Shown piece after piece: positions 8,291 to 27,205 of a DNA stretch of 27,205 nt. The DNA comes from a virus: the UHGV virus genome UHGV-0267347. One strand, written 5' to 3'. Under the pieces are notes generated by a model. The model worked only from the letters and a program-made list of their open reading frames with translations. It ran no database searches and was not told where the DNA came from. A program made the position numbers and the translations under genes. Position 1 is the first letter of the stretch. The number at the start of each line of letters is the position of its first letter.

Positions 8291-9228
8291 CCCCTGAATC
8301 CTGCCGGGATCTGGCTGTAGTCCACGTTGTCGTAACTGGCTTTGAAGTACGGGTCTTCGCGTTTTTCTGTGTACGTGCTGACGGACGGCGATAAGCGCAG
8401 GGAAAGCTCATCCCATTTTTCCCGCAGCTTCGACGGGCTGAGCACGTTACGGCACCAGAACGGATCGCGGCTGACGCGGCTGTACATCTCGCAGATTTGT
8501 TTGTGAGTACGACCATCCTGCACACACATCAGGCGAATTTCGTTTGCCCAGGCTGTCCAGTTCGGTTCTTTGGGACGAACCACCTCGCCGTCACATTCGG
8601 CGGCTTGCTCGTACAGGGCGATGATTTTTTTCCAGAGCCACTGTGCGCAGGTCAAATCATCCTGCGTTCCCCACTGGCGCTTTTTAGGGCTGAATACAAC
8701 CGCATCAGGATGGCGAGTTAAAAAATCCTGTTCATCCGTCTGCGTGTCCGGTTGCGAAGCGTCCGGACGAGAAGGTTTTTTATCTGACGGATCATGTTTT
8801 GATTTTACTGACGGATCCCCGCCAGATTCTGACGGGTGAAAACCCGCTTTTTTGCCAGATTTCGACGCATCAAATTTTGACGGGTCAGATTTTGATGCGT
8901 CAGATTTTGACGGGTCAGAATCTGACAGTTGAGAAAATGCCGCTGCCTGAAGCTTCGCAACGTTAAGCTGATAAACATTCGACGCATTGCGGTTACCCTG
9001 GCGACGCGCCTTACGCGTTAACCAGCCTTCTGCTTCCAGCCGTGCGATAGCCGTCCTGACGGTACTCATCCCCGCGCCAATCTGACGGGCAATAGTTTCA
9101 ATTGATGGCCAGCACACACCTTCGTCATTACTGAAATCAGCTAGGCGGGCCATAATTGCCACGCTGGATAATTTCATGCCTGATGCAGCGCAACCATCCC
9201 ATACATAGCCGGTTAATTTAGTGCTCAT
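8287..9228 (-). CDS. phage replication initiation protein (N-terminal wHTH, conserved phage C-terminal domain) with embedded iterons
   Basis: N-terminus SVAIMARLADFSNDEGVCWPSIETIARQIGAGMSTVRTAIARLEAEGWL (HTH); low-complexity linker SDPSKSDASKSDPSKFDASKS encoded by DNA repeats; C-terminus with conserved Trp/Cys pattern (CAQWLWKKI...WTAWANEIRLM). Confidence 0.8.
   Translation of the reverse strand: MSTKLTGYVWDGCAASGMKLSSVAIMARLADFSNDEGVCWPSIETIARQIGAGMSTVRTAIARLEAEGWLTRKARRQGNRNASNVYQLNVAKLQAAAFSQLSDSDPSKSDASKSDPSKFDASKSGKKAGFHPSESGGDPSVKSKHDPSDKKPSRPDASQPDTQTDEQDFLTRHPDAVVFSPKKRQWGTQDDLTCAQWLWKKIIALYEQAAECDGEVVRPKEPNWTAWANEIRLMCVQDGRTHKQICEMYSRVSRDPFWCRNVLSPSKLREKWDELSLRLSPSVSTYTEKREDPYFKASYDNVDYSQIPAGFRG
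8777..8935. repeat. iteron array (candidate origin of replication) inside the replication gene
   Basis: At least seven direct repeats of about 15 bp, consensus near GATTTTGACGGGTCA (gattttgacgggtca, gattttgatgcgtca, gattttgacgggtca, gaatctgacagttga, ...), as for ori-lambda inside gene O. Confidence 0.6.
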
Positions 9229-13685: not shown

Positions 13686-14035
13686 TGGAGCCATACAGCC
13701 TCACACTCGATGAGGCCTGTCATTTTCTCAAGATATCCAGACCGACTGCCATTAACTGGATACGCACAGGGCGTCTTCAGGCAACACGCAAAGATCCCAC
13801 TAAGAATAAATCTCCTTACCTCACAACACGACAAGCCTGCATTGCGGCTCTTCAGTCTCCGCTGCATACTGTCCAGGTGAGCGCGGGTGATGGCATAACA
13901 GAGGAAAGAAAATGTCACTCTTCCGCAGAGGTGAAATATGGTACGCCAGTTTCACATTGCCGAACGGTAAAAGATTTAAACAGTCTCTTGGAACAAAGGA
14001 CAAAAGGCAGGCGACAGAACTCCATGACAAGCTAA
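13685..14035 (+). CDS. xis: excisionase-like HTH DNA-binding protein
   Basis: Internal ATG 13685 ([31 protein letters not shown]): Xis/AlpA-type HTH directly upstream of and overlapping int, as in lambda xis-int. Confidence 0.55.
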
Positions 14036-15075
14036 AGGCTGAAGCATGGCGGGTCAGCAAACTTGGTGAAATACCTGATATAACGTTCGAGGAAGCGTGT
14101 GTCAGGTGGCTTGAAGAGAAAGCACATAAAAAATCACTGGACGATGACAAAAGCCGGATCGGATTCTGGCTTCAACATTTCGCAGGAATGCAACTAAGAG
14201 ACATTACTGAATCAAAAATTTATTCAGCAATGCAGAAAATGACGAACCGGCGTCATGAGGAAAACTGGAAACTCAGGGCAGAAGCATGCAGAAAAAAAGG
14301 GAAACCTGTTCCAGAATACACGCCAAAACCAGCGTCCGTTGCAACGAAGGCTACGCATCTTTCATTTATAAAGGCCCTACTAAGAGCCGCAGAGCGTGAA
14401 TGGAAAATGCTGGATAAGGCACCAATTATTAAAGTGCCTCAACCAAAGAATAAACGGATCCGCTGGCTGGAGCCCCATGAAGCACAAAGGCTGATTGATG
14501 AATGTCCGGAGCCATTAAAGTCTGTTGTTGAATTTGCACTGGCAACAGGCTTAAGACGCTCGAACATCATCAACCTTGAATGGCAACAAATAGATATGCA
14601 GCGCCGGGTGGCATGGATAAACCCGGAAGAGAGTAAATCAAACCGCGCAATTGGCGTTGCGCTGAATGATACTGCATGTCGCGTATTGAAAAAACAAATC
14701 GGGAATCATCACCGTTGGGTATTTGTGTACAAGGAAAGCTGTACCAAACCAGACGGAACGAAAGCGCCAACAGTAAGGAAGATGCGGTATGACGCAAACA
14801 CAGCCTGGAAAGCGGCGCTGAGACGGGCTGGTATTGATGATTTCAGATTTCACGACTTGAGACACACCTGGGCAAGTTGGCTGGTTCAAGCCGGAGTCCC
14901 GTTGTCAGTGTTACAGGAAATGGGAGGCTGGGAGTCTATCGAAATGGTTCGTCGATATGCTCACCTTGCACCTAATCACCTTACCGAACACGCACGGCAA
15001 ATAGACTCGATCCTGAACCCATCGGTCCCAAATTTGTCCCAGTCAAAAAATAAGGAAGGTACTAATGATGTGTAA
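13912..15075 (+). CDS. int: tyrosine integrase
   Basis: 387 aa; C-terminal catalytic signature R...HDLRHTWAS...GGW...VRRYAHL (R-H-x-x-R-Y), transcribed toward the att core. Confidence 0.95.
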
Positions 15076-15089
15076 CTTATTGATTTAAA

Positions 15090-15135
15090 TGGTGCCGATA
15101 ATAGGAGTCGAACCTACGACCTTCGCATTACGAAT
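15090..15135 (-). other. thrW: att core: 3' 46 nt of a tRNA-Thr(CGU) gene (anticodon loop to CCA); partial tRNA, 5' half absent
   Basis: Minus-strand sense AUUCGUAAUGCGAAGGUCGUAGGUUCGACUCCUAUUAUCGGCACCA: anticodon loop UUCGUAA (CGU), T-arm GGUUCGACUCC, acceptor 3' strand + CCA; matches recalled thrW 3' half; the expected complementary 5' acceptor strand is missing upstream. Confidence 0.7.
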
Positions 15136-15439
15136 TATAAGAATCCGCTTCTAATTCAAAGTATTACCCCATCAACACTGCGCTCACACGTCCCACCACA
15201 TCAAAACATGTAAAGCCTTGCAAGCCATTGTGAGGCCTTATGTGTCTCAGTTTTGTCCCACCTTGTATTATGACTTGCATAGCCAATGAAGATAAATGTG
15301 ACGACAAACGGCGCAGCAGTCTTCTTTTCCTTCATACTTTCCCCACCCAGCATGCATACCTTCTACCATAACTGTAGTTAATGTCTGTTATGAGCGAGGA
15401 GCGGACATTGCTAACAGCGTTCTGTGCGAATCAAGCAGG

Positions 15440-16858
15440 TCAGTCAAATAATTTATCGTCTGCCTCATAAGTTTCCTGAAACGTGAGGCTATTTGCATTA
15501 GGAACTGGATCATCTGCGTGTTGAATAATGGTTTGGCTTTTTAAAATGCTTTGCTTGAAAAAGCGTTTGCAAATTATCTCACCGTTAACTGGAAGCCAAT
15601 GCGTGGCCTCTGGAAATAGCGTAGAATTTATAGGGTTTTCCGCGTTTGGGTTATGAAAAATTTCAATTTCTGAAGTCCATGGCTCATAACTATAGGGTTC
15701 CCAAAGACGACGATATTGGTCACTGGCTACATCCATACTGAAGGGGATGCCACGTAAGGCTCCCGCCGAGTCATTAGCGAACTCACCAATCCTTATGTAC
15801 CGGTAGCCTTTGATCAAGGCGCCGGAAGAAACAGGTACTCTGCTCAGCTTGGATAAAGTCGCAGAATTAGAAAAAATAACCGCCGAGAGAGCAATGTTAT
15901 CGTGTGAATTAAACAAACCAGCACGGATTTTGGGGTCGCTTTTGAGGCAGTCGACAGTTTCTGCTACAGCCACAACCTTCCCATCTATTTCTTTTTCTCT
16001 TCCATAAAATCCATAGAGATAGGTAATTAGAGCCTCACGGCTCCACATCATTGAACCGGGAGCGTGAAAGTCCGCGATAGCAATGGCAAACGGCTTTCCT
16101 TCGACATGAGTGAGACTAGTGTAATTCTTGCGCAGTTTATTCCTTAGGGTCCGCGCATAACGTTCAGCCGCAATTCCCGATACCCTGTCTTGTCGGTTTA
16201 AAGGAAACGTCAGAGGTTCAGCCCTGGCATGGTCGTAACGGTCCGATGGATTAACTGTCACAGCTTCAATCCAGGCTTCTCCACCTGACCTGTTTATTAC
16301 GTGAAAATCAGGAGAGGGGTACTCCTGAGTGACTAACAACCCCTGTTCACGGAAACTGGCCAGGAGCATGGCTTCCCAAATACGTGTATGAAAGTTATCA
16401 GTCTGGCACTCTCTTGCCCAGTGAGTATCCGGATTTGGCATTGCAAGATACAATTGATTAAGCATCCATGCGCCAGGTGCTCTACAAGGATGTCCAAGTA
16501 GTTTGAATATGTTACTTGGTTGTCTACCTTCAACATCCCAAAGCGGTGCGCGCCTGCGTGTACCCGGAGGCAAAGGGACGCGACTCGCAGATTCATCGCA
16601 TGCCTCACGTATAATTGTGAAAGCCTCTTCTTCACTATATGAATCTGACTCCCAGCGTAGCACTGCCCATACATCGTCCTCACGACGCCGCATTATAAGA
16701 ATGCCATGCTTTCCGCTGTGACAATTACGTGTCAGTGCACAGACTGTGACATGATCATGACTACCCCAAGCGCTAACTGGAGGATCATCCCCAAATCCCA
16801 GACCTCGGGGAAGCGATAAGGCATATACATCGAATACACAAGACGGAATGGGAGTCAT
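15440..16858 (-). CDS. hypothetical protein (472 aa), unknown function
   Basis: Long ORF, no motif recognised; 5' third more GC-rich than the rest; directly downstream of the 156-aa ORF on the same strand. Confidence 0.65.
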   Translation of the reverse strand: MTPIPSCVFDVYALSLPRGLGFGDDPPVSAWGSHDHVTVCALTRNCHSGKHGILIMRRREDDVWAVLRWESDSYSEEEAFTIIREACDESASRVPLPPGTRRRAPLWDVEGRQPSNIFKLLGHPCRAPGAWMLNQLYLAMPNPDTHWARECQTDNFHTRIWEAMLLASFREQGLLVTQEYPSPDFHVINRSGGEAWIEAVTVNPSDRYDHARAEPLTFPLNRQDRVSGIAAERYARTLRNKLRKNYTSLTHVEGKPFAIAIADFHAPGSMMWSREALITYLYGFYGREKEIDGKVVAVAETVDCLKSDPKIRAGLFNSHDNIALSAVIFSNSATLSKLSRVPVSSGALIKGYRYIRIGEFANDSAGALRGIPFSMDVASDQYRRLWEPYSYEPWTSEIEIFHNPNAENPINSTLFPEATHWLPVNGEIICKRFFKQSILKSQTIIQHADDPVPNANSLTFQETYEADDKLFD

Positions 16859-16962
16859 CGAAAAGTCTCACTTAATGAGCCTAAAGATAGCGGCAAGCAG
16901 ACCATAAAAGACCGGTCCATAAGTAGGTACCTTCTGCATTCGTTAGCGATTTTTTGACTTTG

Positions 16963-17433
16963 CTAGCAGTCAAACCCAACAATTAACTCTTCAGTAATCT
17001 CACTTAAGGAGACTATGCCTTTATATCCAGTTTCAACGTATGGGACCACCCTATCACTCCATGCCTCTTCTGCTTTCCATGCAGTCCAGGGGATCAATTT
17101 ATCGAATTTGCTTTCATGAAGAAATAGTATTGAAATTCTATCATTAGGCACATGTTTTATAAACTGAGTTGGAAAACATTTATAGGCATGTTCTTCCCAA
17201 TGCTTAGTCCCATAACATCTGTAGTCAAAAAAGGAAACACAGTTACGCCGTCTGAAAAAACCATTTGATGAGTTTCCAAATCTTGACATCTGCAATAATT
17301 CCGAGTTTGGGATCAAAGCGCCGGACTGTTTTATGAGAGACATATTATTTTCAGGCGTAACATGGAACACTCTTCCTAAAAGAGCAGGTAATATATCATT
17401 GTGAGATATGATTTTGAGTTGACTGACTTTCAT
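16963..17433 (-). CDS. hypothetical protein (156 aa), unknown function
   Basis: AT-rich ORF, no motif recognised; probable first gene of a two-gene operon with 15440..16858. Confidence 0.55.
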   Translation of the reverse strand: MKVSQLKIISHNDILPALLGRVFHVTPENNMSLIKQSGALIPNSELLQMSRFGNSSNGFFRRRNCVSFFDYRCYGTKHWEEHAYKCFPTQFIKHVPNDRISILFLHESKFDKLIPWTAWKAEEAWSDRVVPYVETGYKGIVSLSEITEELIVGFDC

Positions 17434-17588
17434 ATATCTTGACCATCGAAATATGGATTAGTGCAATACGTTAACATAGCATAATGTCACTAGCGTCTCC
17501 TATTGGCACATAGCAGTCCTAGAGACACTGGCGTAAAGCCATGGAGGATCGGTGGGAGGAGGCGCTAATCCTTTCATACAAAAAATAT

Positions 17589-17686
17589 GTAAAATCAATA
17601 ACGGCTGTAAATCATTCAATACTCGCCCTATCGGAAGTTCACCAGCCAACCGCAGCACGTTCTTGCATACGACGTGGCTGCGGTTT
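17589..17686 (+). repeat. 98-bp direct repeat, copy A (hairpin-containing)
   Basis: gtaaaatcaataacggctgtaaatcattcaatactcgccctatcggaagttcaccagccaaccgcagcacgttcttgcatacgacgtggctgcggttt; about 92% identical to copy B; contains imperfect inverted repeat cagcacgt...acgtg(g)ctg. Confidence 0.8.
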
Positions 17687-17784
17687 CAACTCCCGCCAAT
17701 CATGATTGAGCGATAGTAGAATAGTAATAACAAAAATTGGTAGTTATCAGGCTCAGCAAAACACCAATCGGGTGGTGAGGATAC

Positions 17785-17808
17785 AAAAAAGGCACCCGCA
17801 GGTGCCTT
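17785..17808 (-). terminator. intrinsic terminator (minus-strand sense)
   Basis: aggcacc-cgca-ggtgcct hairpin preceded by AAAAAA on the plus strand (stem + U6 for a leftward transcript). Confidence 0.45.
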
Positions 17809-17869
17809 AAATACTACCCCTTAGCAGCGCACTAAAAATGCCCACGCCTCGTACCCGTAATCATGAGCA

Positions 17870-17974
17870 TCAAGGACTTTTTTTGATTTCCCACGCACCT
17901 TGCGGTAACGGCAGAAAACCCAACGGAACCCTTTGGGCGCCGCTTTTGAAGCAATTGATTTCAAACCCATTCAT
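17870..17974 (-). CDS. candidate small ORF (34 aa) with canonical SD
   Basis: TAAGGAGGTG then 4 nt then ATG; MNGFEINCFKSGAQRVPLGFLPLPQGAWEIKKSP; lies between the ImmA-like gene and a terminator; not in the ORF track (below its size cut-off). Confidence 0.3.
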   Translation of the reverse strand: MNGFEINCFKSGAQRVPLGFLPLPQGAWEIKKSP

Positions 17975-18093
17975 AAAACACCTCCTTACCAAGAGAGATT
18001 TTTCCCTTGAACATCTTCCCTGAAGGTGTTAATTTCAGGCTGTCTATCGAAGCTGTTCACGGTGGTGATGCCTCTTGGATTCATCACCTAAAG

Positions 18094-18129
18094 CCCCTTG
18101 CACTGGTTGGCGCCAAGCAAGGGGTTTTT
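18094..18129 (+). terminator. intrinsic terminator hairpin (strong in plus sense) abutting the ImmA-like stop codon
   Basis: ccccttgc-(15 nt loop)-gcaagggg followed by TTTTT. Confidence 0.5.
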
Positions 18130-18649
18130 ACATTTTGTCTAGCTGATAACGCGCTGCCACTAATGAAACTCCGCATGCCTCAGCAACATCCTCAGCCGTC
18201 ATACCTTTTAAAATACTGGCATGCATAGCTGGCACTAATAACTCACCACTAAAACATTTAGCTTGCCATTCACTACTCTCAAAAGGGCGGATTTTTACCC
18301 CTGGGGCAGAACGAGCAAATGCGATGTTCCTGTGCATAAGAAGATGACCCAGTTCATGCGCGGCAGTCATCCTATCTCGCCCTACCCCATTCAAAGCGCC
18401 TTCGTAAATGTCTTCGCGCAGAATCAATAAATGTTCCTGTGGGTATGTAAGACCATGCGTCTCTCCCATTTCTTTCATACCACCAATGTGGAACTCAAAA
18501 TCCGGGATCAACTGAGGCAATGCGAACTCAATTACCTCCATTACAGGGAATTTAAGCCCAGTAATACCAAATGCGCTCCGCAGAGATCTGACGATAGAAC
18601 GTATTGATTCACGATTCTGCGGAGGTACACGATAATCTTGTCCGCTCAA
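18128..18649 (-). CDS. ImmA/IrrE-family zinc metallopeptidase (COG2856-like)
   Basis: HEXXH motif in AAHELGHLLMH; 173 aa; immediately downstream of an XRE HTH gene. Confidence 0.85.
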   Translation of the reverse strand: MSGQDYRVPPQNRESIRSIVRSLRSAFGITGLKFPVMEVIEFALPQLIPDFEFHIGGMKEMGETHGLTYPQEHLLILREDIYEGALNGVGRDRMTAAHELGHLLMHRNIAFARSAPGVKIRPFESSEWQAKCFSGELLVPAMHASILKGMTAEDVAEACGVSLVAARYQLDKM

Positions 18650-18657
18650 GCCGCCTC

Positions 18658-19017
18658 CTACTGCTGTTTTCGATTCAAAATCTGTCGTAAATTACGGAAG
18701 TCTTCTTCATTTAACTCATCAAAACTACGAGCGAACGCAATTGCGACTTCACGAGCGTGGCCATTCTTACCTGACAAGCTGATCTCTACTGACTGCTGAG
18801 AGTCACGAGCTGCACTGATAAGCTTTTCTTTTTGTTTTTCATCCGCATTAAAATAGCTAATGATGCTATCAAGCACGGGCTTAGTGACCGCCCTTTTACC
18901 AGTTTCGATCGCTGAAAGATAAGACGAGGTCATGCCCATAGCCTCAGCCATGCTTTTAAGCGTAAGCCCCAAGTCTATGCGCATTTTTCTTACTGTCTTA
19001 CCAAACGGCGTTAACAT
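18658..19017 (-). CDS. XRE-family HTH transcriptional regulator
   Basis: N-terminal HTH (KMRIDLGLTLKSMAEAMGMTSSYLSAIETGKR); 119 aa; paired with the metallopeptidase gene. Confidence 0.85.
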   Translation of the reverse strand: MLTPFGKTVRKMRIDLGLTLKSMAEAMGMTSSYLSAIETGKRAVTKPVLDSIISYFNADEKQKEKLISAARDSQQSVEISLSGKNGHAREVAIAFARSFDELNEEDFRNLRQILNRKQQ

Positions 19018-19197
19018 AGTTGCTTCTCCAGTGTGTCAAAGACCTTCAGTACTTCAGGTCTCATTTTAAGTTAACACTCCACAGACATGAAATCAACAAA
19101 ATTCTGTTAATTTTTTTATCTTGCTTAGTTTATGAGTTTACATCTTATGTTGATAGAACTGTTGGTTGGTGAAGAATCATGGGGAAATGAGTCGTAA

Positions 19198-19353
19198 TCT
19201 CTTGATATTTTATGGTATGGAGATGAGCGTCAAAGCTACCATAGCGATGATTTTCCTGTTACCTACACCGCAGATAAGGATTCTGCTAATGCTTTTGTTC
19301 AGGAGACTCTGAAAGATACCTGGGAGTCTGCTGACGAGTGGTTTGTTCATTAA
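19198..19353 (+). pseudogene. 3'-terminal remnant (51 codons, no start codon) of an unidentified gene
   Basis: Open frame bounded by an upstream stop, reading [51 protein letters not shown], protein-like composition, ending 8 bp before repeat copy B. Confidence 0.35.
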
Positions 19354-19360
19354 TTAATAC

Positions 19361-19458
19361 GTAAAATCGATAACGGCTGGAAATCATTCAATACTCGCAC
19401 TATCGAAAGTTCACCAGCCAGCCACAGCACGTTCTTGCATACAACGTGCCTGCGGTTT
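19361..19458 (+). repeat. 98-bp direct repeat, copy B
   Basis: gtaaaatcgataacggctggaaatcattcaatactcgcactatcgaaagttcaccagccagccacagcacgttcttgcatacaacgtgcctgcggttt, followed by a T-run. Confidence 0.8.
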
Positions 19459-19549
19459 TTGAGACCGGTCCGATCATCAAACGAAACATAAAATTAGCTC
19501 ACACTATGAGGAAAAGTATCTTTTTTACTATGTAAATTCAAAGGATTAG

Positions 19550-20419
<870 letters not shown>

Positions 20420-20439
20420 GTCTTTAAGTGATAAGCATA

Positions 20440-20480
20440 AACCGCAGCACGATCTTCTTGCATACGACGTGCTACGGTTT
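20440..20480 (+). repeat. direct repeat, partial copy C (hairpin core only)
   Basis: aaccgcagcacgatcttcttgcatacgacgtgctacggttt shares the 3' hairpin core of copies A and B; lies between the GIY-YIG stop and the pin stop. Confidence 0.7.
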
Positions 20481-21034
20481 CATTTATCTCCGACCGGAAA
20501 CTTCTTATACAGTGTCGATATACCAACATCATAGATGATCGCCACCTTCTGGCGAGGAACGCCTGATGCAATTAATCGTCCGGCCTGCTCCCATTGTTCT
20601 GGTGTAAGTTTGGGGCGACGTCCACCAATTCGTCCCTGTGCGCAAGCTACTTCCAGTCCAGCTTTTGTTCGTTCAACAATCAGTTCACGCTCCATTTCAG
20701 CCAGGGCACCCATCACATGAAAGAAAAAGCGCCCCATTGGGGTACTGGTATCAATTGAATCCGTCAGACTACGAAAGTTGATGCCTCGTTCGCGCAACTC
20801 CTCCACCAGCACGACAAGATGCCGCATACTGCGCCCCAGTCGGTCCAGTTTCCAGACCACCAGCGTATCACCTGCCGATAATGTCCTGAGCAGTTTTTTC
20901 AGTCCCGGCCTTTCGGACTTTGTACCGCTTATCTTGTCTTCAAAAATCAGCTCGCATCCTGCACAGTTCAGCGCATTACGTTGTAGATCTGTGTTCTGGT
21001 CATTTGTTGACACACGTACATAGCCAATAAGCAT
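20480..21034 (-). CDS. pin: DNA invertase, Pin/Gin/Cin-family serine recombinase
   Basis: Start at internal ATG 21034; MLIGYVRVSTNDQNTDLQRNAL...LVVWKLDRLGRSMRHL...GRFFFHVMGALAEMERELI is near-identical to recalled e14 Pin; 184 aa. Confidence 0.95.
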   Translation of the reverse strand: MLIGYVRVSTNDQNTDLQRNALNCAGCELIFEDKISGTKSERPGLKKLLRTLSAGDTLVVWKLDRLGRSMRHLVVLVEELRERGINFRSLTDSIDTSTPMGRFFFHVMGALAEMERELIVERTKAGLEVACAQGRIGGRRPKLTPEQWEQAGRLIASGVPRQKVAIIYDVGISTLYKKFPVGDK

Positions 21035-21088
21035 GGTAGATCTCCCTGACAAAAGCAGGAATGATGCCATTTGCTCGTTATTTCTGCA

Positions 21089-21114
21089 TTTTCATAAACG
21101 TTGGTTTGGGAGAA
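21089..21114. other. 26-bp invertase crossover site (pix/gix-like), site 1
   Basis: Minus-sense TTCTCCCAAACC-AA-CGTTTATGAAAA; inverted repeat of site 2; half-site resembles recalled gix TTATCCAAAACC. Confidence 0.7.
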
Positions 21115-21555
21115 GCGGCAAAACGAAATGTGGGCAACGGGGAAAAACAAATCCCTGATATGTCTTTCTGGACGGTTACTGGTGGCAATGGAAATTTTGT
21201 GATTCGTCAACCTGACGGGCTAATCATTCAGATGGTTACTGTAAGTATAAGCGGTCCAGTGGCGATGAATGGAATGACTGATAATGCTTATGCCATTACA
21301 GGTTCTAATAAGTCTTATATTGCCACAGCCACATTGCCCTTTGTATTTCCTAATAAGGTGCTGGGCGTTATCCCTCTGGTATCAACAACAGCTTATGGTG
21401 GTGTATCCAGTAATATTACAGGTTCATACGCGACTGCGGTTTGTTCTTTTGCCGCTGTCAGGGGGAATAATACGATTGTGTTCAAAGTCGACAAACCACT
21501 GAATGCAGCCTTTCCTTCAGATACCAGCGTCTCAGCGTTAATCATTGGACGGTAA
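21103..21555 (+). CDS. alternative tail-fibre C-terminal variable segment (Sv'), promoterless and start-less in the current orientation
   Basis: Frame is open through crossover site 1 and encodes ...NVGLGEAAKRNVGNGEK...; after inversion it would fuse in frame to the constant N-terminus ending ...[10 protein letters not shown]. Confidence 0.7.
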   Translation, partial: GLGEAAKRNVGNGEKQIPDMSFWTVTGGNGNFVIRQPDGLIIQMVTVSISGPVAMNGMTDNAYAITGSNKSYIATATLPFVFPNKVLGVIPLVSTTAYGGVSSNITGSYATAVCSFAAVRGNNTIVFKVDKPLNAAFPSDTSVSALIIGR

Positions 21556-21557
21556 TA

Positions 21558-22001
21558 ATGAACTCAGTATTCTTTTCACCCGGAAGTAAAAGTTTTTATC
21601 TGCAAGAATTGTTTCCAGAATATGAGGATGCGGGAACGCTTCCTGATGATGTTATTGAAATTACCCGAGAAACATATGAGCAATTTCTTGGGCTGCATCC
21701 AGAAGGGAAAGAAATTGGCGCTGATAGTTCAGGACGGCCAGTATGGATTAATTCCCCACCCCCTTCAAAAGAGGATGAGGTGTTGACGGCTGAAATGAAA
21801 AAAATATCTTTGGTTTCAGAAGTCAATACCTACATCAATACCCATCAGTGGCCTGGCAAAGCTGCTATTGGTCGTCTGAAAGGTGAGGAACTGGCGCAAT
21901 ATAATTTGTGGCTGGATTATCTGGACGCACTGGAACTGGTTGATACCTCCAGGGCTCCAGATATTGAATGGCCTACGCCTCCGGCAGTTCAGGCCAGATG
22001 A
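21558..22001 (+). CDS. tail fibre assembly protein (alternative, Tfa'/U'-like)
   Basis: 147 aa; C-terminal ...[26 protein letters not shown] motif shared with the convergent tfa gene; lies inside the invertible segment. Confidence 0.8.
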   Translation: MNSVFFSPGSKSFYLQELFPEYEDAGTLPDDVIEITRETYEQFLGLHPEGKEIGADSSGRPVWINSPPPSKEDEVLTAEMKKISLVSEVNTYINTHQWPGKAAIGRLKGEELAQYNLWLDYLDALELVDTSRAPDIEWPTPPAVQAR

Positions 22002-22578
22002 CATCCGGCGCGGTGCTGGTATCTGTTACCGTCACCGCGTCAATGTAATCCAGCACGGCGTTAAGTCGGGTTGTTTCTGCCTGCGTCAACTTCCGCCCGG
22101 CCTGTAATTTCAGTTGAATCAGACTAATGGAAGCCATTGCAGCATCAATCAGTGACTGACGCTGTGCTTCTGCCGCTTCGACTGCTGCGCTATGCTGTGC
22201 CTCAGTATCGGTCACCCATTTCTCACCATCCCATTTATCGTATGGCGTTAATGGAGCGATAGTGGTCGTGTTTTCAGGGTAATCACCCGGAGCTGTGATT
22301 TCTTTTGATTCTCCTGTTTCGGTGCTATAGACGATTTCACCGCGATGGTCTGGCACATATTCCCATGAGTTAAAATCTGCAGAACGGCAAATTGCATAAC
22401 CAGCTTTATATGAGCCAGGAGCATCTAAACAGGAACATGCCGGGATACCGACACCCACAGCAAGATATTCAGTTGATGTGGAAATATATTCTCGTGTCTC
22501 ACCATCATAATTGTAAACGGTAATGTCTCCCGCCTTTGTGGTGATGAGTTCGCTATTTAATACAGCTTTATTCATCAT
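21973..22578 (-). CDS. tfa: tail fibre assembly protein (Tfa/U-like)
   Basis: 201 aa; C-terminal ...[30 protein letters not shown] is the conserved Tfa C-terminus; directly downstream of the tail fibre gene. Confidence 0.85.
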
Positions 22579-23360
22579 GCGGCCCTCACAATATAATTAA
22601 AGGCGATGTTACGTGGACGATTTTCATTTGCTGTTGGAACAACATTTGCCGCCGAGAAGTGAACATCTTGTCGGATTTTTCGGTCATTAGCGTATGTCAT
22701 AGATACGTTGATGTTATTCCGGACTGAGGTACCTCCGTAAAAAGCACCACTCACACTTTGAACATCAACAATTGCATTAATTTCGCTGTTTACGCGCAAC
22801 TGACCAAAACCGCCAGTAATGTTTCGAATAGCATCTCCTTGCGCTGAAAGCAGAGTTCGCCCACTATCCACACCACGTTCATCATCCCAGCCACGAATAA
22901 ACTCACCACGTAAATCAGGCAATTTATTTGTCGGATAAGCCTTTGCCAGTTCCGGGTATTCTTCAGCAGAAAAAGCGGCACCGTTGCATTTCAGCCAGCC
23001 TGTTGGCGGAGTGGCTGAAGGCCACGGAACAGGGACACCAACAGGTAATGCAGAGCCTTCTCCCAAACCAAGGTTTTCGAGAGCCGTTTTCACCGTGCCA
23101 TCCGATTTGATATCGCCAAACGGATTCTTGCGGCTTAACAGCAGCGCGCGAAGCGCGGTAAGTAGCTGGTCGTGCCGCCCCTTCTCCAGGCTGGCACCGG
23201 ACGCCTCCACAACGCTGCAAAGCTCCTCCTGCAACATGTCAAAGTAGTCATCATCCAGATCGGTGGCAGGCGTGCCGGTCTGGGGGTTACCACGGGTAAA
23301 ACCGTTCTTACCCGCGCCGAACTTATCCTTCTGCGCGGTTTTCGTGTCTATACGATGCAT
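22575..23360 (-). CDS. tail fibre protein: constant N-terminus (~98 aa) fused to invertible variable C-terminus
   Basis: Crossover site 2 lies in frame inside the gene; arrangement Sc-Sv-tfa / tfa'-Sv' / invertase matches the Mu G, P1 C and e14 P segments. Confidence 0.8.
23058..23083. other. 26-bp invertase crossover site (pix/gix-like), site 2, inside the tail-fibre gene
   Basis: Plus-sense TTCTCCCAAACC-AA-GGTTTTCGAGAG, imperfect palindrome; encodes the conserved LGLGE junction of the tail fibre. Confidence 0.7.
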
Positions 23361-23363
23361 GGA

Positions 23364-23948
23364 TTACTCCGGATATTTAAAAATTACGTAGGTATGCGAC
23401 GGGCAGAGTTTGTTAAGCACACATTCGACAACTGTGTCGCCCCAGATACGCAGTGCGGAATCACAGGGATCGCCACATGTCATCCAGGTGGTGTTGGTGG
23501 CGGCTGGCATGTTGACCTGCCAGTAATACCGCCATTCAGGCGCGTTCACAGCGTCAGTACAGGCCGATGAGCAGGTGAACGTGCTTTTGTCGTATCGCGT
23601 GATGGTGGCATCTGGTCTGCCCAGGGCAGCAAGCTGTGCAAGATAAAAATCCTCGTTGATGCCGCCCGCCAGGTTAACCTTCGCATCCAGCCGTTGCTGA
23701 CGCTGGCGAAGGGTCTGTGTCCCTGCGGGAATACATTCATCCGGCAGACCGCACAGACGCTCCCAGCGGTTTATCAGTTCAGTGGTGGTGCGCGGATCCA
23801 GCTCCCGCATCAGGGCATCCGCACGCTGATGAGCACGAGTTAATGAAGGTGCCGCACCGGCAATCGCCGGATCGCTGGCTGACCACGCCGGACCGGGGGG
23901 CAACAGTGCCGACAACAGACGGATGTAATCATCGTTTGTCACGTCCAT
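23364..23948 (-). CDS. YmfQ-like tail/baseplate protein (DUF2313, Mu gp48-like)
   Basis: 194 aa, same length and gene position as recalled e14 YmfQ, between the J-like gene and the tail fibre. Confidence 0.75.
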
Positions 23949-25412: not shown

Positions 25413-25957
25413 GCCTCCATCGCTTTATCAGGTTTGTCGGTGTTACTGCCCTGACCGTTCTCTCTGTGACGATGCCAGTTATAGGCAAGCCTCATCGCTG
25501 ACATGGTGGTGCCGCTGGAGTCGCACAGGTCTTTCACCTGTCCGGTCACTTCCAGGTCCATTTCAAAACGAGCCTTAGGCGCATTGCGAAACGTGATCGT
25601 TTTCCCTGCACCGTCCACCACGATCCCCGCCCGGGTCAGCGTCACGGACTGCCCCTGATCGTCATAGACAGCCACCTCACCCGTCTGCAGCCCTTTCAGG
25701 CGGTAGCGCCGGTCCGACACCGTAACAACCACCGCATGAGAACGGTCACCATCCGGAAACAACACCACCGCTTCCGCACCGCTGTTTGCCCTTGCGGTAA
25801 AACCGTAGGGTTCAAGATGTTCAACCCCGGCTTTGGGTTCACCGGCAATCAGGGACACATCCACGGTCTGACATTTCGTGGCGGCACTGATGCTTTTCAC
25901 CACCGCCCGCCCAATCAGGCCGAGGAGTTGTCGCTGTATGGTTTCAATCGCCTTCAT
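25409..25957 (-). CDS. baseplate spike/assembly protein V (Mu gp45-like)
   Basis: 182 aa; ATGA overlap with the downstream gene; position in the module; call from recalled homology only. Confidence 0.75.
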   Translation of the reverse strand: MKAIETIQRQLLGLIGRAVVKSISAATKCQTVDVSLIAGEPKAGVEHLEPYGFTARANSGAEAVVLFPDGDRSHAVVVTVSDRRYRLKGLQTGEVAVYDDQGQSVTLTRAGIVVDGAGKTITFRNAPKARFEMDLEVTGQVKDLCDSSGTTMSAMRLAYNWHRHRENGQGSNTDKPDKAMEA

Positions 25958-26859
25958 CAGAACGGGTCCTCCTGTACTCTGGCTTTTTTCTTTTTCCGCG
26001 CGCCGGGAGCTTCGGGTTCAGGCAGATAAGCATCAGGTGGGCCGACACGGATTTCCGTCAGGGTGCCATTCTGGTCCTGAGTAAACGTGACTTCCGAGAC
26101 AAGCAGTTCGGTATTGTCGAAACCACAGACCGGATCGAAGACAATCACCCGCTGGTTGGGCTGCCACAGCGTACCGTTACCCTGTCGCCAGCCCTGCACC
26201 ACATAGGTGGTTTCATCCGTCCGCGCCGCCCGTTGCCGGGCTTCAAAGTCCGCACGGGCAATACAGCCTGCCCCCGTAGCCTGCCCTGGCTGCCTGATAT
26301 ACATCGGACGGTAACGGGCAATAAATGCGTCCTCTGTGCGGGCCCGCAGCGCGGTGGTGGTGGCCTCACCGAAATCATCGTCGTTTCCGGCACGCTGCCC
26401 CGCCACCTGGTAAACTGAAAACCGCTCCCGGATACTCTTCTCCGTATCACAGGAAAGGATATTTTCCCCGAGTACCAGCGCAGTATGTGCCCGCGTTGAG
26501 CCAATACCGCCAATCACCAGCCTGCCGTGCGGGTCGTCGTAAGCCAGTGCCTGCTGCTGACCGAGTATTTTGTTGATTACCTCAATCACCGTTTCACCGT
26601 GATCAGGCTGAACATCAGGAATAACACCCGACGGCGCACCGCTGTTCACCACCTCAATGCCGAAAGGCGCAGCAAGCGCCTGCGCAATCTGCACCAGCGA
26701 GCGTCCGTTAAACTGTGTCGGTTCGGCTGCACAGTCAATCAGGTCAGCCGTCAGACTGCGTCCGGCAATACCGGTACTGACCGAACGGGCATCGTAACGA
26801 ACGGGCGTCGCCTCCACCCAGCCGGTGATCACCAGCTCATCACCAATCAGTACCTCCAC
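25957..26859 (-). CDS. Mu gp44-like tail/baseplate hub protein (P2 gpD family)
   Basis: 300 aa; N-terminal L.(V/I).G.....GW motif shared with the N-terminus of the plus-strand ORF at 27109; weak SD, so the start is uncertain. Confidence 0.65.
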   Translation of the reverse strand: MEVLIGDELVITGWVEATPVRYDARSVSTGIAGRSLTADLIDCAAEPTQFNGRSLVQIAQALAAPFGIEVVNSGAPSGVIPDVQPDHGETVIEVINKILGQQQALAYDDPHGRLVIGGIGSTRAHTALVLGENILSCDTEKSIRERFSVYQVAGQRAGNDDDFGEATTTALRARTEDAFIARYRPMYIRQPGQATGAGCIARADFEARQRAARTDETTYVVQGWRQGNGTLWQPNQRVIVFDPVCGFDNTELLVSEVTFTQDQNGTLTEIRVGPPDAYLPEPEAPGARKKKKARVQEDPF

Positions 26860-26865
26860 TTTTGA

Positions 26866-27111
26866 ACCGTTTTTAATGCGCTGTTTCTGGCGCTGCGCCG
26901 GGTGAAAGCAGATCTGAATGCGGATATCAACACGCGCCTTGAACAGTCTGCACGGATCATTCAGCGCACACCGGATGAGGTTTTACCCGCGCTGGTGCTG
27001 GCGGCGACCTGGTTTGATAACGCGGCGCGTGACGCGGACATTATCCGGCGTAATGCCATTACGCATCCCGGCTTTGTGCCGGTGATCCCTCTGAAGGTGC
27101 CAGTGCAATGA
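26866..27111 (+). pseudogene. 3' fragment (about 81 codons) of a Mu gp43-like (DNA circulation) gene; 5' part missing
   Basis: Frame open from 26866 with no plausible upstream continuation (upstream is antisense of the gp44-like gene); ends in a TGA that overlaps the ATG of the next gene. Confidence 0.45.
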
Positions 27112-27205
27112 ACGACAATGTCACGCTACGGGTAAATGGCCGGGAGTGGAATGGCTGGACATCGGTGCGCATCGGTGCCGGTATTGAACGGCTGGCGCGG
27201 GATTT
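27109..27205 (+). CDS. N-terminus of a second gp44-like baseplate gene; continues beyond the right edge
   Basis: MNDNVTLRVNGREWNGWTSVRIGAGIERLARDF parallels the N-terminus of the minus-strand gp44-like protein. Confidence 0.55.

Follow-up and report, generated by a model that had tools for sequence, protein, structure and literature searches.

Results

Gene content of the locus

The window, that is, the whole stretch of 27,205 nucleotides of viral DNA that was analysed, carries between positions 20480 and 23360 a gene for a DNA invertase, a tail-fibre gene, a second fibre C-terminus that is presently not joined to any constant part, and two genes for tail-fibre assembly proteins. The constant N-terminal part of the fibre gene (23070..23360, minus strand), which ends with the residues ENLGLGE, is 97% identical to residues 1–105 of StfP from Escherichia coli K-12 and is located directly downstream of a homologue of Mu gp48/YmfQ (ORF 23364–23948, Phage_Mu_Gp48). 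In the current fusion it is continued by a variable C-terminus (22575..23069, minus strand) that is 60% identical to K-12 StfE. At the junction ENLGLGE is followed by GSALPVGV, and the complete fibre comprises 261 amino acids with a Pfam Collar domain at residues 108–155 (1e-15). The assembly gene of this currently joined cassette is of the tfaE type (21973..22578, minus strand, 201 aa; Caudo_TAP, 1.3e-32) and its product is 93% identical to K-12 TfaE. The alternative fibre C-terminal cassette lies on the plus strand at 21103..21555. Its frame is in register with the adjoining crossover site, reads GLGE followed by AAKRNVGNGEK and runs for 150 codons to the stop at 21555; in Pfam it reaches 24.6 bits against Gp53-like_C, just below the cut-off of 24.9. 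The chaperone gene belonging to this alternative cassette (21558..22001, plus strand, 147 aa; Caudo_TAP, 5.5e-28) specifies a protein 55% identical to K-12 TfaP. The two tfa genes are convergent and overlap by 29 nt at their 3′ ends. In NCBIfam, neither Pin nor the fibre nor the chaperones had a model specific to them. A constant fibre N-terminus combined with two convergent C-terminal cassettes, each equipped with a Caudo_TAP gene, is the architecture of the Gin/Cin/Pin systems, and the interpretation in these terms that had been offered in an earlier note on this DNA is supported.

The invertase and a candidate enhancer

The pin gene (20480..21034, minus strand, stop codon included) encodes a small serine DNA invertase of 184 amino acids, in which a Resolvase domain (residues 3–135, 5.7e-50) precedes an HTH_7 domain (residues 138–180, 4.1e-13). 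Both the size and the order of the domains, N-terminal catalytic and C-terminal HTH, fit small serine recombinases of about 180–195 amino acids. The assignment to the Pin type, already made in the earlier note, is borne out by 95.7% identity to K-12 PinE and by the alignment of residues 1–181 with the structures 3UJ3 and 4M6F of Mu Gin (E about 1e-93), which places Ser9 opposite Gin position 9, a serine in 4M6F and an alanine in the 3UJ3 mutant. Alongside Ser9, the catalytic residues Y5, R7, R42, D64, R65 and R68 are retained, and the protein also carries K46, K47, R50, H106, M114, Q150, R153 and L154, with M114 representing the wild-type state in the Gin alignment. In Hin, contacts to Fis and to the enhancer are made by the invertase-specific residues K47, R48 and K51 as well as Q151, R154 and L155 (PMC3798978). 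Their counterparts in Pin are K46, K47 and R50 as well as Q150, R153 and L154. The ATG of pin is separated from the pin-proximal crossover site by 54 nt, a distance that is the same in 36 relatives; a longer pin ORF starting at 21070 is an ORF-finder artefact. When the region 20300–23500 was scanned for promoters and terminators, matches were no more numerous than in shuffled sequence and none was found in the pin upstream region; a sigma-70-like promoter was predicted neither for pin nor for the pin-proximal ORF.

Homology and weak Fis-like 15-mers point to a candidate recombinational enhancer at 20950..21013 (minus strand, nucleotides 22–85 of pin). The first 120 nucleotides of pin show three differences from K-12 pinE and align without gaps with gin and cin. 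Two G-N13-C 15-mers centred at pin nucleotides 29 and 78, which we consider weak candidate Fis sites, flank the sequence ATCTA...TAATG; we counted a spacing of 49 bp for them, compared with the 48 bp between the Fis sites of the enhancer. The stretch ATCTA...TAATG corresponds to the A/T-rich segment between the Fis sites of Hin, which features ATTTA and TAATG (PMC3798978). A scan of pin with the Fis consensus retrieved weak 15-mers only, and third-codon-position conservation among pin, gin and cin was no higher at the 5′ end than elsewhere. A pair located 48 bp apart in gin and cin (centres 53 and 101) was discarded because the terminal C is absent from pin and K-12 pinE. By homology, a Fis enhancer within pin is plausible, and the activity of this Pin may depend on Fis and such an enhancer.

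Crossover sites and the invertible segment

The pin-proximal crossover site, TTCTCCCAAACC-AA-CGTTTATGAAAA, occupies 21089..21114 on the minus strand with its core dinucleotide at 21101–21102, while the fibre-gene site, TTCTCCCAAACC-AA-GGTTTTCGAGAG, occupies 23058..23083 on the plus strand with its core at 23070–23071. Read on the minus strand, the latter encodes ALENLGLGE. Coordinates and sequences of these inverted 26-bp sites, the 14 contiguous bases that they have in common and the in-frame position of one of them at LGLGE within the fibre gene are all as previously noted; overall, the two sites agree at 21 of 26 positions. A repeat finder returned arms of 20 nt with 95% identity (21096–21115 and 23057–23076). 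Each site is organised as 12-2-12, the two are inverted relative to each other, both have AA cores, and the half-sites match their own dyad partners at 8–9 of 12 positions. Comparison with the gix/pix consensus, which had been proposed as a check, revealed the pattern of gix and cix, namely TTnTCnnAAACC, a 2-bp core and GGTTT, with the gix and cix sequences read directly from Mu and P1 DNA.

Within the 27.2-kb window, the exact 14-mer occurs at just these two sites, and our own arithmetic gives a chance expectation of about 0.02 exact 14-nt inverted pairs for the 3.3-kb region. More decisive than this estimate for the sites being real is that both 26-mers are, letter for letter, the two sites of the P segment of the K-12 element e14 (NC_000913.3): the pin-proximal site is identical to the one adjoining pinE and the fibre-gene site to the one in stfP. 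In IMG/VR, the fibre-gene site has at least 120 exact matches, and the pin-proximal site is the commonest partner site in the corresponding loci (38 loci).

The invertible segment (21102..23070) measures 1,969 bp from core to core and 1,941 bp between the repeat arms, which refines the previous estimate of roughly 2 kb; homologous segments in relatives are about 1.5–1.94 kb long. A multi-site shufflon like Min/p15B was rejected: a scan that accepted half-sites with up to three mismatches plus AAACC-NN-GGTTT recovered only the two sites and chance-level matches at 8496 and 11506. When the segment 21103–23069 was inverted in silico, an uninterrupted in-frame fibre of 247 amino acids resulted in which LGLGE is followed by AAKRNVGNGEK, exactly the fusion that had been predicted.

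Both orientations occur in relatives

While the window itself represents a single orientation, its relatives provide both. Over 9,065 nt, E. coli strains Cn5 and IrN are identical save for an exact reverse complement of 1,905 nt that is bounded by the sites, with identical flanks of 3,716 and 3,444 nt, and IrN has a coding sequence of 247 amino acids in which the constant part continues into the AAKRNVGNGEK-type motif. Among complete E. coli genomes, at a coverage threshold of at least 80%, 34 had the orientation of the window and 18 the orientation obtained by flipping it in silico. IMG/VR contigs with the same cassette pair were found in the window state in 27 cases and in the flipped state in 12, and reciprocal states were also seen there for other cassette pairs. 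In IMG/VR, the collar cassette is the commonest partner of the constant part (54 of 120 among the matches listed), and about 35 contigs have the constant part fused to an AAKRNVGNGEK-type N-terminal motif. Ends of IMG/VR contigs located no more than 30 nt from the site were on the variable side in 11 cases vs a single case on the constant side. Both orientations therefore occur naturally in relatives, with breakpoints within the sites. For K-12, experiments have been reported in which PinE inverted the P segment (PMC12529663; PMC4272514). The Pin switch is probably active in the molecule studied here as well. What had been named as evidence to the contrary was a single orientation together with a mutated active-site serine; the serine is intact and both orientations are present in close relatives. 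All checkable details of the original observation are confirmed.

Comparison with known inversion systems

The cryptic prophage e14 of K-12 (pinE, stfE, tfaE, tfaP, stfP/ycfK) resembles the locus not only in its two identical 26-bp sites and in the close similarity of Pin, the constant fibre part over 105 residues and TfaE, but also in the order ymfQ–fibre–tfa–tfa–silent cassette–pin and in the 29-nt overlap of the tfa genes. Differences concern the distance between the repeats (1,941 nt here, 1,797 nt in K-12) and the orientation, as the state of the window, with Sc joined to a collar/StfE-type tip, is the one termed ‘inverted’ by K-12 workers. They also concern the tips: the collar tip and the Tfa protein of the second tip share only the 60% and 55% identity with StfE and TfaP given above, and BLASTP detected no significant similarity between the second tip and the K-12 StfP tip (E = 0.3). 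The variation is allelic and concerns the cassettes, not the switch. Furthermore, the baseplate genes of the window are intact through gp45, and the cargo beside pin consists of PD-T4-3, a CapH/CapP-like pair and PD-T7-1, whereas e14 carries mcrA. Neither mcrA nor icd is present in the window; e14 resides at icd, whereas prophages related to the window are found at thrW (tRNA-Thr)/proA.

With the Gin/G segment system of Mu, the locus shares an invertase that aligns from end to end, the Sc/Sv + U, Sv′ + U′ layout following gp47/gp48 homologues, the position of the invertase gene, which lies beyond the segment and points away from it, and 12-2-12 sites. The G segment is longer (about 3 kb), Mu S has 504 residues compared with 261 and 247 for the fibres considered here, and the core of gix is TC/GA instead of AA/TT, with half-sites matching at 8–10 of 12 positions. 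The invertase Cin of P1 is 82.8% identical to Pin, and cix, TTCTCTTAAACC-AA-GGTTTAGGATTG, has the AA core and 10 of 12 left half-site positions in common with the sites of the window, but in the P1 record it is found at the 3′ end of cin and not upstream of the invertase gene. The P1 C segment spans about 4.2 kb and the virion is a different one. P2-like phages with invertible fibre cassettes (for example, Escherichia phage pro483 and ‘P2’ of O157:H43 T22) contain the same collar tip and tfaE cassette with 87–92% DNA identity, and this homology ends 3–5 nt beyond the crossover core. They likewise have two convergent tfa genes and an adjoining DNA invertase gene, but the constant part is a P2 H-type fibre, and the backbone around the module is that of P2, with gene H on one side and the sheath gene on the other. 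Hin of the Salmonella H segment belongs to the same subfamily of Fis/enhancer-dependent invertases, with conserved basic residues in helix B and a conserved Q/R/L patch; it flips a promoter for flagellin phase variation and not a coding cassette.

The general picture that emerges is, with a probability that we put at roughly 0.93, that of a temperate phage with lambdoid early genes and a Mu-like baseplate that carries an e14-type Pin/P-segment switch. The system is an ordinary one, familiar since the 1980s and described by Plasterk and van de Putte (1985) and by Kirigo et al. (2025). Thousands of E. coli genomes contain near-identical loci annotated with pinE and tfaE, and 277 blocks of an assembly collection contain the exact 261-residue fibre. 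Compared with K-12 e14, the differences are allelic, namely a longer segment and other fibre-tip alleles.

The pin-proximal ORF

The alternative cassette at 21103–21555 had been described as start-less in the earlier note. It does head an open frame and is followed by its own tfa gene, but a conserved in-frame ATG lies upstream of it: ATGs at 21061 and 21064 give rise to an ORF (21061–21555) of 164 or 163 amino acids, which in relatives is annotated by RefSeq as a hypothetical protein. The in-frame leader (21061..21102, plus strand; MMPFARYFCIFINV...) owes part of its sequence to the outer half of the crossover site, and its counterpart in K-12 is the N-terminus of stfE, MPFACYFFIFINVGLGE. Of 46 related loci, 41 have an ATG leader in frame, and in 23 of these the peptide is identical. 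The existence and conservation of this ORF lend themselves to the reading that the switch also, or even mainly, serves the lysogen, in that the ORF, translated from the conserved ATG and made up of the 18-residue leader and whichever tip faces pin, would provide a free receptor-binding domain that masks surface receptors and blocks the adsorption of other phages; the window would then be in an StfE2-like state with the leader joined to the gp53-like domain. Plasmid-produced K-12 StfE2, consisting of the stfE leader and a gp53-like C-terminus, has been reported to block adsorption of T2 (PMC12529663), and the element adjoins the defence genes PD-T4-3 and PD-T7-1. We nevertheless consider this reading unlikely. 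The published support consists of overexpression and docking, the Shine-Dalgarno-like sequence AGGA is poorly spaced at 0–3 nt before the ATGs, and no promoter was predicted for the ORF. The leader need not be conserved for its coding capacity, as much of it is dictated by the crossover site and the remainder falls within the short stretch upstream of pin. The gp53-like tip is not detectably similar to that of K-12, so a receptor-masking activity is not transferable. Unlikely, too, is the more specific proposal that the conserved leader of 17–18 residues (MMPFARYFCIFINVGLGE, half of it site-encoded) and the ‘off’ tip are translated in lysogens and act as a phase-variable receptor-masking, superinfection-exclusion device. 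If it were true, the window in its present state would produce the gp53-like domain in free form, corresponding in architecture to K-12 StfE2, and would do so beside a defence island (PD-T4-3, the CapH/CapP-like pair and PD-T7-1). Given how highly diverse the tips of the relatives are, the phages excluded would differ from one allele pair to the next.

Integrity of the prophage

The prophage may be defective, as a gp44-like baseplate gene is split at 26876–26881 by a private rearrangement that none of 1,092 E. coli genomes shares. Host-range switching would then be moot in this copy, and the switch could be a locked relic, in which the sites and pin look intact while inversion has been lost or has become immaterial. 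Truncated pin genes of 42 or 126 aa do occur in some relatives with the identical 261-residue fibre. In the window, however, no catalytic residue of the full-length Pin is missing and both sites are identical to those that invert in K-12, and e14, itself defective, inverts all the same. The rearrangement, which takes the form of a terminal inversion of 330 nt, is moreover situated at the extreme right of the window and may have arisen as a chimera during assembly or amplification. We regard a locked relic as improbable. An origin of the rearrangement by Pin action was rejected, since the junction is a 6-nt ATGCGC microhomology devoid of a pix-like site.

That the inverted repeat arose by chance, or reflects the shared LGLGE coding of paralogous fibre genes with no recombination taking place, can safely be dismissed: the GLGE peptide is encoded by both arms and protein homology could account for some similarity, but this similarity ends at the site and the flanking coding sequences on the variable side are unrelated, the sites exhibit the gix/cix dyad structure with an AAACC-NN-GGTTT core, an intact invertase gene is only 54 nt away, and the reading is refuted by this gix/cix pattern, by the Cn5/IrN inversion and by the IMG/VR orientations, with natural inversions breaking exactly within the sites.

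Discussion

The anatomy of the locus, the intact catalytic apparatus and the in-frame fusion are established. For an e14-type Pin/P-segment switch, the following course of events would be expected. Pin dimers would bind the two inverted 26-bp sites, and host Fis, bound to the putative enhancer in the 5′ end of pin, would assist formation of the synaptic tetramer. Ser9 would then cut both sites at the central AA/TT dinucleotide, and one pair of subunits would rotate by 180 degrees before religation, such that the 1,969-bp segment is inverted. Because one site is located within the fibre gene, inversion would not affect the first 101 codons (up to and including LGLGE) but would swap the receptor-binding C-terminus along with the assembly chaperone dedicated to it. 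The present state corresponds to Sc with the collar-domain tip and the TfaE-type chaperone (261 aa), the flipped state to Sc with the gp53-like tip and the 147-residue Tfa protein (247 aa). A lysogen population would then be expected to release particles of two fibre specificities; that the two tips recognise different receptors is assumed here by analogy with Mu and P1.

The locus is a clean and fully intact example of such a switch, in which sites identical to those studied experimentally in K-12 are combined with different tip alleles. It also holds lessons for annotation and assembly: the ‘silent’ cassette is called a hypothetical protein, the name given to the fused fibre depends on the orientation, and the crossover site is a place where contigs are prone to end. 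Should the phage-adsorption block recently claimed for the pin-proximal chimeric ORF prove general, the diversity of tip alleles encountered here would deserve testing.

Both orientations of the fibre segment occur among relatives

To judge from its relatives, the element appears to invert: both orientations occur in them, with breakpoints inside these sites. Its earlier reading as a switch of the Gin/Cin/Pin type proved correct. When E. coli complete genomes were compared with a 3.1-kb query at a coverage of 80% or more, 34 of them matched the region in the window orientation and 18 matched the region flipped in silico. The chromosomes of E. coli Cn5 and IrN (4,818,820 and 4,818,806 bp) contain 9,065-nt loci with identical flanks of 3,716 nt and 3,444 nt, while the middle 1,905 nt are exact reverse complements of each other and have the same two sites as bounds. 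The exact fibre-gene site is present in at least 120 IMG/VR contigs. In 54 of these the constant part of the fibre carries the tip type now joined to it in the window, and in about 35 the alternative type. Where both cassettes of the same pair are visible, the window state is found 27 times versus 12 times for the flipped state, and reciprocal states occur for other cassette pairs as well. IMG/VR contigs (loci L009-L128) that end no more than 30 nt from the fibre-gene site do so on the variable side in 11 cases (e.g., L020, L023, L038, L031, and L068) and on the constant side in one, likely the signature of assemblies broken by mixed orientations. The phage record ON470584.1 (vB_EcoM-689R6) starts at pin and has mcrA adjoining a truncated fibre gene, a gene layout that suggests a misjoin at the segment. 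In E. coli K-12, clonal cultures hold the P segment of prophage e14 in both orientations (PMC4272514), and PinE, PinQ, and PinR invert it at these repeats (PMC12529663).

Genes and cassettes of the switch

The pin gene (20480-21034, minus strand) encodes a protein of 184 aa with Resolvase and HTH_7 domains. The fibre gene (22575-23360, minus strand, 261 aa, Collar domain) is preceded by homologues of Mu gp48/YmfQ, gp47, gp46, gp45, and gp44. Two convergent genes for tail-fibre chaperones (Caudo_TAP) lie within the segment, one of 201 aa (21973-22578, minus strand) and one of 147 aa (21558-22001, plus strand), the latter being the tfa that had been assigned to the alternative cassette. The open frame of this 'silent' cassette (21103-21555) has its first base exactly at the site and scores 24.6 bits for Gp53-like_C, just below the cut-off of 24.9 bits. 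In-silico inversion of 21103-23069 bears out the proposed in-frame exchange of the tip, as it yields an uninterrupted fibre of 247 aa in which ...ENLGLGE is followed by AAKRNVGNGEK.... The earlier note had called the alternative segment start-less, and its open frame does head at the site; however, the ORF listing contains in-frame ATGs at 21061 and 21064, from which an ORF of 164 or 163 aa spans the cassette. This is the one qualification to a description that is otherwise correct throughout.

The pin-proximal chimeric ORF could give the switch an additional role in receptor masking. In K-12, the chimeric ORF StfE2, which consists of the stfE leader and a gp53-like tip, is reported to block T2 adsorption (Kirigo et al., PMC12529663). 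An equivalent ORF exists in the window. Its leader peptide MMPFARYFCIFINVGLGE (21061-21114, ahead of the 'silent' cassette) corresponds to the N-terminus of K-12 stfE, and 41 of 46 related loci have an in-frame ATG leader. On the other hand, most of the leader sequence is fixed by the pin upstream region and the crossover site, the outer half of which encodes its second half, the ribosome-binding spacing is poor, and promoter prediction gave none. We consider such a role improbable.

The invertase and a candidate enhancer

Pin is 95.7% identical to K-12 PinE, and its residues 1-181 align with Mu Gin structures. It retains Y5, R7, R42, D64, R65, and R68, and position 114 is the wild-type Met. 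The earlier note had named a single orientation combined with a mutated pin serine as what would speak against the switch; Ser9 is intact, and relatives occur in both orientations. Six Hin residues, K47, R48, K51, Q151, R154, and L155, are uniquely conserved in Fis/enhancer-dependent invertases (McLean et al., PMC3798978), and their Pin equivalents K46, K47, R50, Q150, R153, and L154 are all kept. At the 5' end of pin, the stretch ATCTA...TAATG between two G-N13-C 15-mers corresponds, albeit in uncertain register, to the A/T-rich DNA that separates the Fis sites of Hin, and marks a candidate Fis enhancer. Over the first 120 nt of the gene, pin and K-12 pinE have three differences, and no excess synonymous conservation was detected at the enhancer candidate.

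Truncated pin genes in some relatives with an identical fibre would fit a locked relic, in which the switch of the window copy no longer inverts, but with intact Pin and intact sites such a state is unlikely. Only pin fragments, of 42 aa (locus L131, 12327-12455) and 126 aa (locus L132, 12501-12881), are found in some genomes encoding the identical 261-aa fibre; their switches are presumably locked unless another invertase acts in trans.

Crossover sites and proposed mechanism

Direct reading of the sequence gave TTCTCCCAAACC-AA-GGTTTTCGAGAG for the site in the fibre gene (23058-23083) and, as reverse complement, TTCTCCCAAACC-AA-CGTTTATGAAAA for the pin-proximal site (21089-21114). This confirms a 26-bp inverted pair with a common 14-bp half-site plus core, the two sites sharing 14 contiguous bases and 21 of 26 positions overall. 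The best inverted repeat that a repeat finder returned for the region has 20-nt arms of 95% identity (21096-21115 and 23057-23076) at a spacing of 1,941 nt. A search of the whole window revealed no further exact copies of the shared 14-mer, and three-mismatch matches stayed at chance level. Each site contains an imperfect internal dyad, as expected for an invertase site, with half-sites agreeing at 8-9 of 12 positions. Comparison with K-12 MG1655 showed that the e14 P segment is flanked by exactly the same two 26-bp sites. The crossover sites gix, TTATCCAAAACC-TC-GGTTTACAGGAA as read from Mu DNA, and cix, TTCTCTTAAACC-AA-GGTTTAGGATTG as read from P1 DNA, have the same 12-2-12 pattern as the window sites. 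A chance repeat is excluded by this pattern, the exact inversion between Cn5 and IrN, and the reciprocal states in IMG/VR.

The standard mechanism of the Gin/Cin/Pin family is the best explanation for this switch. Pin dimers would bind the two sites and bring them into synapsis, possibly aided by Fis on the candidate enhancer in the pin 5' end; staggered cuts at the AA/TT core via Ser9 would be followed by a 180 degree rotation of subunits and religation, such that the receptor-binding C-terminus of the fibre is swapped along with its chaperone.

Layout of the window

Read from left to right, the window has a lysis cassette, early genes of lambdoid type with a CI-like repressor, a tyrosine integrase (13912-15075), cargo, and pin; the fibre switch and Mu-like baseplate genes complete it. 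The cargo is a defence-gene island (15440-20419) at the position of mcrA in K-12 e14, with a PD-T7-1 homologue (15440-16858, E = 2.8e-69), a 156-aa protein without family match (16963-17433), a CapH/CapP-like pair of HTH protein and M78 peptidase (18658-19017 and 18128-18649), and a full-length PD-T4-3 GIY-YIG protein (19595-20419, E = 2e-140). Relatives have GmrSD, an AAA_15/SMC-like ATPase, or a type II R-M system in the same place. In related prophages in E. coli chromosomes, the integrase adjoins tRNA-Thr/proA and cargo and pin lie at the opposite end, whereas in the window cargo comes directly after the integrase, and pin after the cargo. Relative to the integrated form, the window is thus a circular permutation, pointing to DNA that was excised or packaged, or to a tandem junction; an attP-like junction should lie at about 15076-15440. 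No tRNA gene was found in the window.

The last 330 nt (26876-27205) run in the opposite direction to their counterparts in six related IMG/VR contigs and in every one of the 1,092 E. coli complete genomes that have this DNA. The junction, a 6-nt ATGCGC microhomology without a pix-like site, splits the Mu gp44-like baseplate hub gene into its C-terminal 300 aa (25957-26859, minus strand) and its N-terminus, MNDNVTLRVNGREW... (from 27110, plus strand). If it were a simple inversion, it would cover only about 381 nt, the second junction falling about 57 nt past the window end. The rearrangement may be a private mutation or a chimera from assembly or amplification.

Relation to K-12 e14 and other phages

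Against K-12 proteins, identity is 97% over the first 105 residues of the fibre (with StfP, or YcfK), 93% for the 201-aa chaperone (with TfaE), 60% for the collar tip (with StfE), and 55% for the 147-aa chaperone (with TfaP); protein comparison revealed no significant similarity of the second tip to that of StfP. With a StfE-type tip on the constant part, the window has the orientation that K-12 workers call 'inverted'. Segment length, tip alleles, integration site, and cargo set the locus apart from e14, all of them allelic or contextual differences. The observation holds and had been read correctly, and the system was already known.

P2-like phages, e.g., pro483 (L129) and P2 T22 (L130), have invertible modules with the same collar tip and tfaE plus an invertase. 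The collar and tfaE cassette shares 87-92% DNA identity with these modules, and the homology stops 3-5 nt beyond the crossover core, in keeping with the way fibre cassettes are known to be exchanged as modules. In IMG/VR loci, at least eight distinct tips, as told by their first residues (e.g., GSALP, GAPAI, AAKR, LSLAGTAS, GANWVMLP, GAKLNAAT, AAKMPAAT, and ARFSGRLL), share one constant part and one joining site. By analogy with Mu and P1, the two tips of the switch in the window would differ in receptor specificity.
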